A stretch of 58,635 bases of DNA, filler included, from Sphacelaria rigidula (lineage: Eukaryota): the NCBI GenBank assembly GCA_964200075.2. It is 5 parts of 5 records of this genome, joined end to end, with 100 filler letters (N's around TTAATTAATTAA, not from the genome) between each part and the next. Parts side by side here need not be neighbours in the genome. Positions count along the whole stretch, not along the records: positions 11,749 to 23,396 come from CAXNAA020004666.1; 4 more parts are not named here. The stretch is one strand, 5' to 3'. Below the pieces are notes generated by a model. The model did no database searches, was not told the origin of the DNA, and was given only the letters and a program-made list of their open reading frames with translations. Positions 16,630 through 58,635 of the stretch are shown piece after piece (the stretch's first letter is position 1; each line of letters begins with the position of its first letter). Made by a program: the position numbers and the translations under genes.

Positions 16630-17931
16630 TTAGATGCGCGTGCAGATATTTGCGAGTCTGTACAATATGTCTTCCTTTTTCTTGGCTACCCTACCTGCTT
16701 TTTCCAACTCTCCTTTTTCTGAGTACCACAGCGCTATTAGTTCAGCGTCAGACTGTCCCGACTCATCTCCACCGTTAAGAGGCGGCACCGTCGCCGACCC
16801 GCTAGACTGAAAACCAACACATGATACACCTGTCTTCTGTCCTACACAGGACGCGGAACTACTGGCTCCTTGATCCGTTGAGGAATTAATAGCGGGGCAG
16901 CTGGCCCCTGGTTCGCCGGAAGGGTAGCTGGCCCTGTGTTCACTAAGGTGGCAACTGATACTACGATCACTGGTAGAATATCTGTCCTCGTGTTCACTGG
17001 AGGGGTAACTGGCCCCATGTTCAGTGAAGGGGTAACTAGCCACATAGTCAGACATGGGGTAACTGGTCCCATGGTCACTACTAGGGTAACTGGCCCCACG
17101 GTCAATGAAGGGGTACCTGGCCCCACGGTCACTACTGGGGTAACTAACCCCACGGTCACTACTGGGGTAACTGGCCCCACTGTCGCTGCTGGGGTAACTG
17201 GCCCCATGATCACTTAAGGGGTAACTGGCCCTATGATCGTTCAAGGGGTAACTGGCCCCACGGTCACTGACGGGGTGACTGGCCCCACTGTCACTGAAGG
17301 GGTAACTGGCCCCATGATGACTTAAGGGATAACTGGCCCCATCATCGCTCAAGGGGTAACTGGCCCCACTGTCACTGAAGGAGTAACTGGTCCCATGATC
17401 ACTTCAGGGGTAACTGGCCCCGTGATCGCTCAAGGGGTAGCTGACCCCACGGTCACTGAAGGGGGAACTGGCCCCATGGTCACTAAAGGGGGAACTGGCC
17501 CCACGGTCACTGAAGGGGGAACTGGCCTCACGTTCATGAATGGCGTAACTGATCCCTGCTGCATGAAAAACTGGCGTGGCTTGTTCTAATGTGCGAGGGG
17601 TTACTGTTGTCGGCAGTGCTACACCGACCGCCTGTGAAAGCGAAACTGAGTGGGGTTCTGTTAGCTGGTGGGTTACGCGATCGTGCCCTGAGTTAACTGA
17701 CGTGACAAGCTGCCGAAGGTACACTGATACCCCGTTCCCTTCGTAACCCTGATTCCCCATGTGTTCACAACCCCGGTCGCGAGGCACAGCTACCTCTGTT
17801 TGCTCTCTACATCTCTCACCATGAAACACGGTCGCTGGGACCAACGCAGGTGAAGGTACCCCGATAAGCCCCACGGACTTAGAGGCGTCCGCAAACATCG
17901 TGTTCACGTCGCTACCCGCTTCTCCTATCAA
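16630..17931 (-). pseudogene. ORF upstream of RT containing a 9-aa repeat (SDHGASYP(F/L/S)); one in-frame stop at ~17404
   Basis: ORFs 17404-17931 and 16630-17352 are in the same frame, separated by one TGA where other units read TTA/TTC. Confidence 0.6.
16897..17555. repeat. 27-bp minisatellite (GGGGTAACTGGCCCCAYGRTCACTNNN), about 24 units
   Basis: Directly visible tandem array. Confidence 0.95.
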
Positions 17932-19825: not shown

Positions 19826-21034
19826 ATACGGCGTTTCACAAGCAGGGAGACAATGGTCCCTCCTTCTGAACAAAACATTGATGACGGATGCGGGGATGTC
19901 ACGAAGTAAGGCTGACTCGTCTGTGTACAAAACAGGAAGGAAGGGGGAGTGTGTGTGTCATAGACTAATGCCGAGATAGCCCCCCCACAAAAAGTGCACC
20001 GGAGACCGGCCGACAAACCGGCTGCGATCCCATTACTGGGCTCGTTTGCAGCAATTTCGCCCACGCGGGAGCCGTGTAGCAGTTCGAAATCAGCTATAGT
20101 GCCCACATGAGTCGCGTCGTGCAGTACCAAACCAGCTCTAACAGAATTTGCGATCATCGCCTTCGTGCACGTTTTTGGCCGGTTCGGGGGGGGGGCTATC
20201 TCGGCAGCAGTCCATACTCGTTGTACATGTAGACGACCCTAATTGGGGGTGAAACAAAAAGAGTGCAGATAGTCTGCGATATCCCAAACAAGAGATTTCC
20301 GACGAATAACCTTGGTGAGGTTCAATGGTATATGGGGTGTACCATAGAGAGGGATTGGAAGACAGGTACTATGTACATGAATCAGACGACCTTTATCGAC
20401 ACCATGCTGAAGCGTTTTGAAGTTACGGGTTTTTCTGACATTCCTGCCTCAGTATCAGCGGACTTAGGACCGGTGAAGCAAGGAGACAAGGTGGTGGATA
20501 GACCATACCGGAGTACCGTAGGAGGGTTGATGTGATTGGCTGGGGTAACCAAAGCCGACATAGCAAATGCAGCCCGGAACCTGGCTCGTCAATCACATGG
20601 CTCATGTGAAAGACACTGGCGAGGGGTGTTGAACGTTTTAGCGTACCTCAACATAACCAGAAATTACGGTCTGACTTTCAGTTCAAGGAAAAGTATACCC
20701 TCAGTCTATTGTGATTCTGATTATGCAAAGAAAGAGACAGACAGGCGACCAGTTTCCGGGGTAGCCGTCATGTACGGGGGGATATCAGTATCGAGAATTA
20801 ATTGAACGCAACACTGCTTTACCCTGTCAACTACCGAGCCGAGTATGTAGCTATGGCAGAAAGGGCGAAGGAATGTATGCTTGTCAGGTAAGTACTGTGT
20901 TTCCTACGACCAAGGGTTGTGTCAGGACGACAAGTGGAGTATGACATTGCTCTCTGTGAGGACAACTAGGGGGCCTAGGCCCTAGCCGACAATCCTCTCA
21001 GCTCAAGTCGTAGTAAGCATATCGACGTGAGGTG
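19826..21034 (+). pseudogene. Ty1/copia pol continued: RT C-part and RNase H (interrupted by a MITE)
   Basis: IYGVSQAGRQW, ILVVHVDD, YRSTVGGLM, VYCDSDYAKKETDRRPVSG, LSTTE, SKHIDVR. Confidence 0.93.
19963..20212. mobile_element. 250-bp MITE, TIR GACT..TGCCGAGATAGCCCCCCC, 4-bp TSD CATA
   Basis: TIRs and CATA duplication visible; excision restores copia VCVILVVHVDD. Confidence 0.9.
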
Positions 21035-21283
21035 TGTGGCGAAATCACGCCGTCACGTTGAGTAAATAGTGATGATTGAATGATGAGTTGGGATCTGTAG
21101 TGATGATATGGATGATGATATGGACACAGGGGTGACACCCTGGTGTGATTTATGGAGCCGCCTGGATGGCACTCCTGAATGATGAGAATGTTGTAAAGGC
21201 TGACGACTGGAACTGAGGCCAGTAATACTAGGGGGTGCCTCAACAGTAGTGATCCAACAGTGCCTCCACTGGCTGGCGTCACA
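21035..21283 (+). repeat. 5' LTR of gypsy element 1 (TGTGGCG...CGTCACA)
   Basis: Begins where copia KHIDVR breaks off; TG...CA with short terminal IR; shares motifs and length with 55536-55781. Confidence 0.7.
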
Positions 21284-21595
21284 ATATCGATATTAGTGCT
21301 AGCGCTGGTGCTGGTGTTAGTGCTAGAAATCTGCTGAAAGGACTTCGGCGGAAGGAGTTTCGTAGCTGTGGAAACCTGATAACCCACGGACGCGTGGAGA
21401 GGGTTCCAGCTGAGGCAGCTACAGAAAGGCAGCTGGACTGTGATTGATCCAGCCTGGAGACTTGCTGAAGCTGCGTGCAGCGAGAGTCTGGAGGCTCCTA
21501 CGACTGTGTGGTGCGGCGACGAAGCAAGGAAAGTGCAAGTCGCGAAGATCCGCTGGCCTGCAGAGGTTCGGAGGTAGCCGATTACAGCTACAGCT

Positions 21596-23396
21596 TTGGC
21601 TTCCGCCTCACGAGGTACGTCCACCGTGACACCAGTGGTCATGCGGGAAGAATTGCGACCTCTCCAATACGGGGACAGGTACTCAGAGAGTGCATCTCGC
21701 GCTTTTTATACAAAATACTTAGAGTACAAGAGGCGTGTGGAGCACGCTAATGCAGGGGGTGCCGTGCGACATCAGATGGTGACTATGGCACAACAAGTGC
21801 CCACTCATGTACAGAGAGTGTTCGCTCGTTTGGAACATAATGAGGGCACTCTCACCTCGCCGCAATTGGTTGCGGCGATCAAAAAGCATGCAGGTCATAC
21901 GGCGGGCGCCGAGGTAGACCTGACCCAAGCGTCCGCGGCCGTGGCGAAAGCTGTCGCAATGGGTTCTCGGGAGAAAGCGATGTTGGAGCGTGTGGAGCCC
22001 ATCTTGGCTAATTTTGAGAAGTACTTCACAAACAATCCGAAGGTAGAACTAGTATATCGTTTCCCCGATGGTGAGTTCATTTCTGGCCCGGCAGCAGTAA
22101 TCACTAAGGCGTTGGTGGAGGGTTTGGCACCGGAAATTTTCAAGCAAGCCGTGCTTGTCAAGCTGAAGCACCAAACAGATTGGAAGGACGACACGTACCT
22201 GGTGATGAGCACCGTCGTGGCCGCGGCCAAGGAGTGGCGGAAAATAGAGGTGTTCGGCCAGTCGTCCACCTCTTCGCCGAAATCTTTGCGCAACCATGGC
22301 TCGAAATCGGCTGGTCGCGCCGCGATTATTACTTGCCACCGCTGTGGCCAGGTCGGCTATTACGCGCGCGATTGCCCAACGTCTTCCGGTGGAGAGTCTG
22401 GGCAGTCTAGTGCCGCGCGTCATCAGCATCGTCAGCACAAGGGCAAAAGACGAGGTAATCGTGGTGGCGGCGGCAGATCCTCCGGCGGTGGAGGGTCGTA
22501 GGCGAGCCCTCAGCAGCAGCAGCAGCAGCATGGGCCTGGCTCTGGATCTGGCGCCGCCGTAGGTGCTGTTGCTTCACAGTGGGCGGCGCAGGTAGACCCG
22601 ACTTCTACAGGGTCGAACACTACTCCGGCGCCGGTGGTGGCGCCGGCGGCGACACCGGCGGCCGCGCCAGGCGCGACGCCTGTTGACGCGCTGGTCGGAG
22701 GGTCGCCAAATTCTTGGTTTGCTGGCTGGGGGGTGTACCCACCGGCGGTGCCGTTTCAACCTGCCGGGGCGTCTTCGCCTGCGCAGCTTGCGCAAGTGGC
22801 GTCAAGTGGGATTAGCGGCGCATAGGTCAGCGGAAGAAGTTCCCGCGGAGCTTGCCGACAGATACATTCCGGCGGAGTTTTGTCTTCCGAATCAACGGAA
22901 GCGTGGAGCCATTGTGGTTTGGTCTGTGTTGGATTCCGGCGCCCGTTTCACTAGTCTTCCGGTGCAAATGGTTGAGATGCTGGAGCGACAACTACCGGGT
23001 GTGTCGCTGCGCATTCCGTTTTCGGTCGGGGCGCGAGAGGCAGTGACCGCGTCAGGTCAGCTTGTTTCAATCACGGAGCGTACAGTTCTGTTGCAGCTAG
23101 CCTTCAAGACTGCTTGGGGGCTGGTGCCGTTGCCTCCGATCTCGTTTGCGATTATGCCAGGGTCGGATGGCGTTGTTCTTCTGGGGTCGCCGACGCTACA
23201 GGATCTAGGAGTCGACCCGTACGCGCAGTCGTGGGACTCCATCAAGACGCAGCTTTCTCCGCCTGGTCCGCACGTGGAGACGACCGCCTTTTTGGGCAGT
23301 CGTCGCGTGAGCTTGTCGGTGGATGCTTGTCAAGAGACTGGGAGGCAGGTGATCGAGGAGCGGGATGCGGCGGTGGAACGCTTGGTAAAGCGCGGC
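21596..23396 (+). mobile_element. Ty3/gypsy element 1: gag (zinc knuckle CHRCGQVGYYARDC) and aspartic protease (LDSGA), cut by contig end
   Basis: Motifs; collinear homology to the element at 55979-58635, whose protease is followed by RT (gypsy order). Confidence 0.85.
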
Positions 23397-55535: not shown

Positions 55536-55781
55536 TATAGCCAAATGATACCAAGCCGCAGGTTTCAGTATGATCGCATGCATGATTGGAGCGGTGGCAG
55601 GAGACAGGGGATCCTCGATTAATAACCTTCATCTATTTGGCCCCTTCCTGTTTAGCTCTTGATGTGGTCTGGAGAGGGTCACTCCGTGATAATAACAAGT
55701 GAGAAGAAAGGACTTGTCGAGCACGAGGCCAGTACTACTGGAGGAGTCCCTCGTGGATAGTCCTCTTGTCCAGAGGCTACA
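55536..55781 (+). repeat. 5' LTR of gypsy element 2 (TATAGCC...GGCTACA)
   Basis: Terminal IR (TGTAGCC with one change); shares CACTCC.TGA and GAGGCCAGTA.TACT with LTR 1; similar length. Confidence 0.6.
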
Positions 55782-55978
55782 ATATCTAGATATTATTCTT
55801 CCGGCACTGTATTAGAGGAGTTTGGCTGAGGAAAGAGTGGCCTGCAGCTGAGAGCCAGTTTAGCCCGCAGACGGGAGGAGACCAACTTCAAGCGCACAGC
55901 CGTGGGAGACGCTCCGTAAGCTGGAGGACGCACAAGCCAGGCAAGAGTCTCTTTGTGAAGTGTCTGAACCATTAGGAC

Positions 55979-58635
55979 ATGGCTCAAGCGGCGGCAGCGC
56001 CACTGGTGTTAGGTGAGCCGCTAGACCCGTCAAGGTACGGCGAGGTGTGGACGGAGGAAGCGTCAAAACATTATCCATCCCAAATATCTTGACTACATAC
56101 AGCGTTTGAGTCTCGCAAATTCCCAGGGGATCGTGAGGCATGAGAGGGTGAGCATAGGTCAACTCATCCCTACCAATATTCACCGATGCTTCGAAGATAT
56201 GTACAAGGACCGTCGGACTATGACCCCCGACGAAAAGCTTGATGCTGTGAAGCAGCATGCCGGGTACACGACAACCGGCGGAAAGCATGACGCTGCGCGG
56301 GCTGCAGCAGACCTGCGTAGAGTTCTCATTATGTCACAAAGCAGTGGAAAATCTGTCAAGGACAGTGCGATGATGGTCAGTTCAGCTATGGAAAGGTTTT
56401 TCTCAGAAGACCTGATGGTGCAAGCCATGTACCGTGCGGAGGACAGGAGCTGCTCGCCAGGCCCGGGCGAGTTGGTTTCCACAGCTTTGGTAGACGGGAT
56501 TTCGCCTCCGGATTTCAAGGCATATGTTAGAGGTGTACCAACTTATGTTGACGGCTGGGAAAATAACCCGACGGTGGTGTTCAACAAAATATTTGATGCC
56601 ACCGAGCAGTGGAAGTTCATTGAAGCACGTAGCTGGCGCGATTCTGCAACAAGTGCAGGTGGTATGCGCCGCAAACAGCAACAGCAGCAGAAACAGCAGC
56701 CGTCTTCGCGAGCGTCGTCCACTCGCGCGTGTTACAACTGCGGCGACACCGGACACCTGATTAAGGATTGTCCAAAGCCTCGCGATCAAGGCGCTGCACA
56801 GGGCAATGCGCAAGATTCATCACGATCTCGGGGCGGTCGTCACGGTGGACGGGGCCGTGCCACTCACAATCAGGGACGCGGGCGCGGCGGCCGCGGCGGC
56901 CGCGGTAGCAAGCAATCGGCGGCGGATGGTGGTTCTTCCGCTGCTGTTTCTTCCACTACGTCATCAGGTGGTGACTCTGAATCTTATGGTTCGTCCGTGT
57001 CGGGGCGGACAGTGTACGTGGGAAATGCAAATAGTTCGGTGGGGAGTGCTGGAGCGAGTAGTTCGCAGCCCCTCGGCCAGGCAGGATCCGTGTCTGGTGC
57101 ATCTCTTACTGCTGCGACGGCTGTAACAGTGCCGTCTGCATATTCGGCGACTTGGTCTGGTTGGACGAACGATTCGCAGCTATCGATGCCGAGTGCTGGA
57201 GGGCAGCCCTGGCGTCAGGTGACTCTTGGTACAGAACAGGGTTCTTCGCCAGGCGTGGTACCTGTCGATCGCAACGCTGAATGCTTACGCTCAGATTTAT
57301 CCTTGCCCGGTTCTGTAGGTTCGTTCATGGCCCGCGTTATTCTGGATTCTGGGTCCGCGCTCACGTCGATCGGTGTGACGTTGCTAGAGCAAATGTCTTC
57401 GCAGTTTGGCGTCGCTCAGCATCAGATTCTATTCGAAAACGGACCACAAACGGCGCAGACCGCCACGGGTGCTCCCGTGACGGTTACACATCAAGCGGTG
57501 CCAATTACTGTTCGCGTGCGTACGCCGTGAGGGGCTGTGCAGTTGCAGCCCATTGCTTTCGCTGTCATGCCCGATAGGGACAACGTGGTTTTATTTGGGA
57601 TGGCGACGATGAAGGAGCTCGGGATTGATTTGTACCCGCTGGCGTTGGATAAGTTACGCCCGCGTGCTGTACCGGTGCAAACTGGCGTGGAAAATCCTAA
57701 CTATCTTGCTGCAAGGCGTGTGATCGTTTCCGTACGGTCATTTCAGAGCGCCAAGGAGGAGGAGGCTCCTGCGGATGAAGCGGTGGAGCGCTTGGTCGAT
57801 GGGGGGGCCGACATGTTTATGGACTCAGCGGAGGAAAGAGGTGCCTGAAAACGTGCGCTAGAGGATAGCGTGCAGCAGGCCGAACAGAAGGGCCTGAGCG
57901 CCGATGGCGCACATTGTCTGCGTGATATCTTGGCTCGTCGCGTGGATAAATTTCGTCGTGCGCTGCGTGGTGATTCGCCAGCGCGCGTAGAGCCCATGAG
58001 GGTGAAGTTCAAGCCACATGCAACTGCTGTGGAGGCCATACCCCGACGCGACGATCCCGTGACGACCGGTTGGTTTGCCTCATGCATCGCGGCTTTGGTG
58101 GCGTTTGGTTTGGTGGTAAGGAGCATCCAGGCTGTGTGGGCGAGTCCGGCGATGGCGGTGCCGAAGAGGGCACATTCCGTTTGGTCAGCGCATATGAGGC
58201 GGTGAACGCGCAAGCGGAACAGTCTCCGGGGGTGATGCCAAGCCAAGACGACATGCGGGAGTTGCTGGGAGCCCAATGCTTCGGCAAGTTGGACCTACCA
58301 CAGGAGTATTGGCAGATGCCTATGGTGCCGGAGGCTCAGGAGATCCTCACGATCGTCACACCTGACGGTTTGTTTACGCCAGGTACAGCTCGCTCAGTGA
58401 AGGTTCCTGCCGTGCCTGTTCATTATGTTGCCGTGTACAACCCGTGTGATGCCGATGACTCGCTGCCCTCGTTAGATGCCATTCGTACCGCGCAGCGTAA
58501 ACATTCGGCGACGGTGTTCACTCTTTTCCTACGACTTTCGGTCAAGCTACTTTGGCTAACGATGGTTTGCTCCGCGTGAGTGTTGGCAGTAGATATGTTT
58601 TGTGGTTTCCGTCGGATGATAAGGCTCTACAAACT
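55979..58635 (+). mobile_element. Ty3/gypsy element 2 (decayed): gag with CCHC knuckle, protease, truncated RT
   Basis: CYNCGDTGHLIKDC, ILDSGS, WASPAMAVPK, FGKLDLPQEYWQ...TPDGLFTP; then an apparent deletion of most RT/RNase H at ~58381. Confidence 0.9.

Follow-up and report, generated by a model that had tools for sequence, protein, structure and literature searches.

A palindrome of changing sequence in the place of the primer-binding site in a Gypsy lineage of brown algae and other hosts, and its possible role in priming between packaged RNAs

Gypsy elements of the brown alga Sphacelaria rigidula carry a short perfect palindrome where a tRNA primer-binding site (PBS) would be sought, and this palindrome overlaps the 5′ LTR at its end. 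Five families of one lineage have five different perfect palindromes of 10–16 nt at this place. The symmetry is conserved and the sequence is not. Palindromes of at least 12 nt start at 74 of 58,263 positions of the analysed DNA (0.13%); a 12-nt palindrome by itself is unremarkable, and its fixed position across five families is what exceeds chance. As the likeliest of several readings, we tentatively propose that the palindrome is PBS and primer at once, and that a co-packaged RNA might prime reverse transcription through a palindrome duplex.

The window, i.e., the whole stretch of DNA analysed here (58,635 nt with filler; assembly GCA_964200075.2), consists of five contigs joined by spacers. 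Its family A copy lies on contig C4666 of an assembly of 244 Mb in 27,214 contigs, and a family B element is found on contig 5 (Table 1). The window element is a chromodomain Ty3/Gypsy element of a brown alga. Elements of this lineage measure about 5.7–6.3 kb and contain, in this order, a gag knuckle, protease, RT, RNase H, integrase and a C-terminal part resembling a chromodomain; a G-rich tract lies three bases upstream of the 3′ LTR. This full order was taken from intact relatives and other copies; the window copy is incomplete, with its RT and 3′ LTR outside the window beyond the contig end at 23396. Domain order, TG...CA LTR ends and target duplication are those of Ty3/Gypsy (Metaviridae), and the integrase downstream of RNase H excludes the Ty1/Copia arrangement. 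The intact relatives P0016 and P0004 have a single gag-pol frame of about 1650–1700 aa. A chromodomain was found in P0016 (Chromo, E 7e-5) and in family D (E 1e-7), and weakly in family A (E 0.008). Named relatives of the family RT occur in Ectocarpus, Scytosiphon and Sphacelaria. Family A LTRs start with TGTGACG, which reads TGTGGCG in the window copy, and end with CGTCACA. In family B, protease and RT start were identified by eye, the RT-region frame being without a Pfam match.

Table 1. Positions of the Gypsy features in the window
Feature	Position	Strand	Remarks
5′ LTR, family A Gypsy element	21035..21283	+	249 bp; start from homology of 30 copies, end from 3′ LTRs
Final 10 nt of U5, present in inverted form after the palindrome in relics L216 and L217	21274..21283	+	
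12-nt perfect palindrome in the place of the PBS, first base is the last LTR A	21283..21294	+	AATATCGATATT
Leader with TAGTGC-type repeats	21295..21340	+	local hairpin, or modest pairing with U5 around the palindrome (predicted)
gag frame with CCHC zinc knuckle, decayed copy	21578..22501	+	zf-CCHC E 0.0018, below curated cut-off
Protease region, family A copy	22596..23396	+	Asp_protease_2 E 0.015
5′ LTR, family B element	55536..55781	+	family start TGTAGCC, end GGCTACA
Perfect 14-nt palindrome, first base is the final A of the family B LTR	55781..55794	+	AATATCTAGATATT; contig 5
Decayed gag-protease and RT start, family B element	56025..58635	+	zf-CCHC E 2e-7

With a slash marking the LTR end, the site reads A/ATATCGATATT in family A, A/ATATCTAGATATT in family B and A/ATAAACGTTTATT in family C, whose RT is 60–63% identical to that of A. 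Family D has CA/ATAATATATTATTG, with its LTR end fixed by a 3′ LTR in locus L184, and family E has A/TTAGCTAAT in two diverged elements. Families D and E come from metagenome contigs, and their RTs are 44–48% identical to that of C; across the families, identity to the RT of C spans 44–68%. Counted from the outside inward, pairs 2, 5, 6 and 7 change on both sides between families. The central four bases differ in all five families and are always self-complementary. The first-pass annotation had noticed that the symmetry survives a 2-nt central indel in the contig 5 relative, and this now extends to five different palindromes. In an RT tree, A–E form one group with a FastTree support of 0.79, or 0.88 with two further metagenome RTs added, far from three other Gypsy RTs of the same genome; the tree sequences do not include the RT of the control element L212 mentioned below. 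Twelve metagenome loci were considered, of which L183–L185, L187 and L188 were informative, and the LTR check left out L186, L189 and L190. No LTR pair was found in L191–L194 (30–33% identity), and viral contigs contained no relative of the family. Matches in GTDB genomes were two short contigs that lack the 5′ LTR region. L181, L182 and protein P0004 represent a Gypsy RT of brown-algal type on contigs that carry a bacterial MAG label, where it probably reflects algal contamination.

A 12-nt perfect palindrome at this position of the family A copy had been claimed beforehand and is present. The LTR end CGTCACA, however, does not run straight into it as had been stated: CGTCACA occupies 21277–21283, and its final A, the terminal base of the LTR, is also where the palindrome begins. 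The same 1-nt overlap is seen in contig 5, at 55781. LTR ends were fixed with two-LTR copies, a check that the annotation itself had suggested. In 24 of 25 LTR pairs the 3′ LTR ends on this CA, with unrelated flank beyond it; the single exception is a tandem element. These pairs were kept from 33 rows, eight having been dropped as mirror duplicates (two) or mis-paired (six). An exact 4-bp target duplication flanks nine of the 25 pairs and a match at three of four positions another eight, and 5-bp duplications were found in none of the 33 rows. The single-base phase of the palindrome to the LTR end is thereby fixed by 3′ LTRs for families A, B, C and D; for family E, which offers no LTR pair, we inferred the LTR end. 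Target sites of 4 bp are biased to G..C in the 5′ flanks of families A, B and C: among 68 sites, G occupies position −4 in 36 and C position −1 in 45. At L133 (G000:C3161) and L187:3100–3520, tandem elements have one LTR in common, which places a palindrome after a 3′ LTR.

Conservation within families had been proposed as a check in the first-pass annotation. Among the best 30 copies each of families A, B and C, the palindrome is perfect in 18, 16 and 17, respectively; G-U pairs preserve it in 7, 3 and 4 more, and in 5, 11 and 9 it is broken. A flank-anchored search gave 147 family A junctions; by hand count 43 of the 100 listed are perfect, and the others differ by a few bases. Identity is 95–96% in the palindrome vs 92–96% in the flanks, as expected for copies that decay after insertion. 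From this it follows that the within-family data tell us no more than what the master state is, namely the palindrome. One family C variant, A/GTGAACGTTTACT (L111, G000:C20710), differs on both sides at pair 2 and looks compensatory; being a single copy, it was not counted. Mirror-image variants among the family A junctions are expected from strand-symmetric mutation and are uninformative on mechanism. A family A subfamily with a different U5 yielded 357 matches at up to one mismatch vs 73 in the reversed control. Many of these matches lie at the ends of contigs, a pattern suggestive of a recent burst of near-identical LTRs.

If the primer were an element RNA ending in the palindrome, its plus-strand copy should read LTR, palindrome, inverted U5, a junction that a tRNA or Tf1 primer would not predict. 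A search for LTR end, palindrome and inverted LTR end in succession returned three places, one of which (L218) was rejected as an ordinary copy with a one-base deletion. The other two, L216 and L217, are independent relics, both from one family A subfamily. L216 consists of one whole LTR, the palindrome and 10 nt of inverted U5, followed by TCACA. An exact 4-bp duplication encloses this relic within a tandem repeat of the host, and the empty site is visible in neighbouring units. L217 has an LTR with a different 5′ half, the palindrome and 9–10 nt of inverted U5, and continues with about 135 bp of antisense pol. Normal copies of the subfamily have an ordinary leader, and the inversion is thus not a subfamily trait. 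The inverted piece of L216 matches a commoner U5 variant at 10 of 10 positions vs 9 of 10 for its own LTR, a one-base difference that means little at 5–12% divergence from the subfamily copies.

The integrase-type end of L216 together with its exact 4-bp duplication points to formation before integration. Combined with the equal stub length of both relics, these features would favour an origin during reverse transcription. Such junctions are the footprint to be expected if plus-strand DNA had been copied from a primer in which the element's U5 end and palindrome are joined. The two relics favour a priming role over a pure dimer signal. In family B, the relic searches gave zero and three places, of which two were checked and proved ordinary; the 24 places of family C were all read as ordinary junctions, two after further checking. 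A looser search led to 34 places, with partial coverage of 18 of them, and the 20 stretches examined were ordinary copies or unrelated DNA with the exception of L237. There, at 368–390 on the minus strand, a family A LTR truncated at its 5′ end leads into the palindrome, then GT and CCTCACA, and after these into unrelated DNA; this may be a third relic.

Predicted energies favour a duplex of two molecules over a hairpin: the palindrome duplex was calculated at −9.1 to −14.4 kcal/mol for the five families, the palindrome hairpin at 0.0 kcal/mol in four families and −0.8 in D. Two packaged RNAs would pair via the palindrome in an antiparallel duplex of 10–16 bp. By analogy with the cleavage of an RNA duplex in Tf1, the RNase H of the element might then cut one RNA at the 3′ edge of this duplex. 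RNase H cleavage in Tf1 self-priming was reportedly described by Levin in 1996. The 3′ end left by the cut would be base-paired to the final LTR A of the other RNA, which is the required minus-strand start. At second strand transfer, a site symmetric through its centre would be needed for the plus-strand copy of the primer to pair with the minus-strand copy of the site. Full symmetry of the site would thus be a consequence of the primer being the site itself. Palindrome-paired packaged genomes, of which one is cut to prime the other, could quite possibly constitute a fourth LTR priming route, with separate origins in Gypsy and in fungal GalEa Copia elements, and L216 and L217 would then be fossil copies of a primer of about 20–21 nt (10 nt of U5 plus palindrome). 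The first-pass annotation had named tRNA-independent priming, by hairpin or between molecules, and a dimerisation signal without ranking them. We agree insofar as neither tRNA nor Tf1 priming fits; the energies lean to a duplex between molecules and the relics to a priming role, although they do not establish a single mechanism. The relics are only two and from one subfamily, and DNA fold-back at the palindrome may produce such junctions without priming.

Among the alternatives, known primer types can be compared with the site directly. In agreement with the absence of a TGG-starting PBS noted before, TGG is absent from the first 8 nt in all five family representatives, and from the 100 listed of the 147 family A junctions. 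The control L212, a young Gypsy element of a different type from this genome, shows TGG one base past its LTR; it is the one control among seven Gypsy stretches with an LTR pair. The suggested tRNA search gave best contiguous matches of 6–7 nt vs shuffled means of 6.6–6.9, and matches with G-U pairs were also within the range of shuffles. Half-tRNA priming would call for a complement of about 10 nt or more to an internal tRNA stretch; no match exceeded chance in the set of 58 tRNA genes (22 counted as nuclear, with only 11 nuclear anticodon types), and half-tRNA priming is unlikely. A host RNA primer, be it a tRNA half, an intron-containing tRNA or another small RNA, with incidental symmetry would require several different primers, all self-complementary by chance, which makes this very improbable, even if the tRNA set is incomplete and half-tRNA priming exists in Copia lineages (excerpts of PMC6317226). 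An idea that family A bases behind the palindrome pair with a tRNA-Ile half was dropped, as B–E lack those bases; the set contains no such gene. The transcript 5′ end as primer, in the manner of Tf1, is known from other chromodomain Gypsy elements (excerpts of PMC6317226 and PMC4600332). It would need a complement inside the LTR, and we confirm that none is evident: the longest Watson–Crick match in the own LTR is at most 5 nt in family A, 6 in B and 7 in C (30 copies each, shuffled means 4.7–4.9), which is chance level in 90 of 90 copies, and likewise in D and E with 4–6 nt (two slices one base off). A 7-nt own-LTR match with one G-U pair recurs in family C, and in family A a single copy of 30 reaches 12 nt when G-U pairs are allowed; Tf1-type self-priming nevertheless appears highly improbable.

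Three further explanations keep a function for the symmetry. The RNA could be cut just behind the palindrome and its 3′ arm fold onto its own 5′ arm, helped by pairing between U5 and leader, with central symmetry kept for second strand transfer. Such a hairpin primer in cis predicts the same relics as intermolecular priming, and a fixed U5 stub would be natural if RNase H cannot cut near the hairpin. U5–leader pairing indeed is stronger than in shuffles in all five families (median z −1.4 in A, −2.2 in B, −1.6 in C, −1.8 in D, −2.3 and −1.6 in E), and the family D palindrome is predicted to cap a long stem that spans the LTR end. This pairing is, however, modest: many copies fold local hairpins rather than a U5–leader duplex, and no crossing pairs are predicted in 4 (A), 10 (B) and 5 (C) of 30 copies each. 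Moreover, the isolated palindrome lacks a stable hairpin in four of five families, and that of A would give a 4-bp A-U stem; we regard the cis hairpin as rather unlikely. Alternatively, the palindrome might be a dimerisation or packaging signal only, with priming from another site or primer. The stable self-duplex would suit this role, as would a palindrome that is mostly unpaired in predicted local folds of A (window copy), B and C, and Ty3 dimerises via a short palindrome (excerpts of PMC11381356). A pure dimer signal would leave the LTR end without a primer site, has no need of single-base phasing to the LTR and does not predict inverted-U5 relics, and we consider it unlikely. Finally, the symmetry might act on DNA: it could serve in strand transfer, help to form cDNA ends or bind a dimeric protein, and the relics would be ordinary fold-back errors. 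Palindromes promote template switching, and there is partial complementarity between U5 and the normal leader. A site bound by a protein would retain its sequence, but the five sequences differ. In neither relic is the leader resumed; the inverted U5 piece breaks off after about 10 nt in each, and in L216 an integrase-type end is combined with a target duplication, so that a role at the DNA level seems quite improbable.

The nearest counterpart of the site is found outside Gypsy. In the fungal Ty1/Copia elements GalEa, a Conserved Hairpin Site, CHSeq1, was proposed to replace the PBS, and no model was found to fit (Donnart et al. 2017, excerpts of PMC5445492). As in GalEa, the elements described here have no tRNA PBS, a palindrome extending over the 5′ LTR's final A and no complement in the LTR. 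In contrast, GalEa is a Copia lineage of fungi with 10 nt and a 5-bp target duplication (same excerpts), and here Gypsy elements of brown algae and other hosts have 10–16 nt and 4 bp. A second, inverse copy with one mismatch, CHSeq2, lies 12–41 nt downstream in GalEa according to that text; no equivalent was found here: in 93 of 93 sequences the best downstream match has 2–5 mismatches of 9, as is also the case for shuffles. With Tf1, Tj1 and Tcn1, where the primer is the 5′ end of the same transcript and the PBS is non-palindromic (excerpts of PMC4600332 and PMC6317226), the elements would share independence from tRNA and a primer of element RNA released by RNA-duplex cleavage; they differ in that the complement in the LTR is absent. 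The Ty3 dimer palindrome likewise is a short self-complementary stretch near the 5′ end that is able to join two RNAs, with 6 nt at nt 391–396, far from the LTR end and additional to a tRNA PBS (PMC11381356, in part). The parts seen of a survey of plant LTR elements list whole tRNA, half tRNA and Tf1 self-primer as three primer types (PMC6317226), and Skipper, without PBS, has a polypyrimidine stretch (PMC5006619, in part).

By description alone, the brown algal Metaviridae ECR-1 and ECR-like resemble our elements in a single ORF, C-terminal chromodomain, 4-bp duplication, LTRs of about 250–270 bp and a length of about 6 kb (excerpts of PMC11541908 and PMC12477816). Three chromodomain Gypsy lineages are given for Ectocarpus in the consulted portions of the ECR texts (PMC11541908, PMC12477816, bioRxiv 10.64898/2025.12.07.692804), and a term search of these portions located no PBS or palindrome passage. 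In five PMC12477816 supplements, the sole palindrome match concerns an EnSpm DNA transposon, and the excerpt of PMC5348765 contains no text on PBS. No palindromic or self-complementary PBS in Gypsy or brown algae was found described in the literature outside subscription journals, Repbase reports, ECR sequence files and preprint supplements. The first-pass annotation had left open whether the site was known: no description emerged for Gypsy or brown algae, but the precedent in fungal GalEa Copia had been missed. New here are a Gypsy lineage with GalEa-type geometry, five covarying sequences and inverted-U5 relics; the geometry itself is already known from GalEa.

The GalEa palindrome has been without a mechanism since 2017, and the Gypsy case makes the question concretely testable, with both sequence and length of the primer predicted. 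If priming takes place between two RNAs, dimer formation would be a condition for reverse transcription, and the element would be independent of host tRNAs and tRNA fragments. It would also be explained why LTR finders based on a tRNA PBS miss such elements.

Other repeats were seen along with the lineage. An open frame of 2075 aa belongs to a Gypsy element of another lineage (L209:2097–8321), with no LTR pair within the stretch examined. In the window, a decayed Ty1/Copia RT–RNase H frame, recognised from motifs by eye, occupies 20293–21030 immediately upstream of the family A LTR, and the family A Gypsy copy thus lies in or beside a Copia fragment. On the same contig, an array of 27-bp tandem repeats extends over 16840–17598 within a long minus-strand frame.
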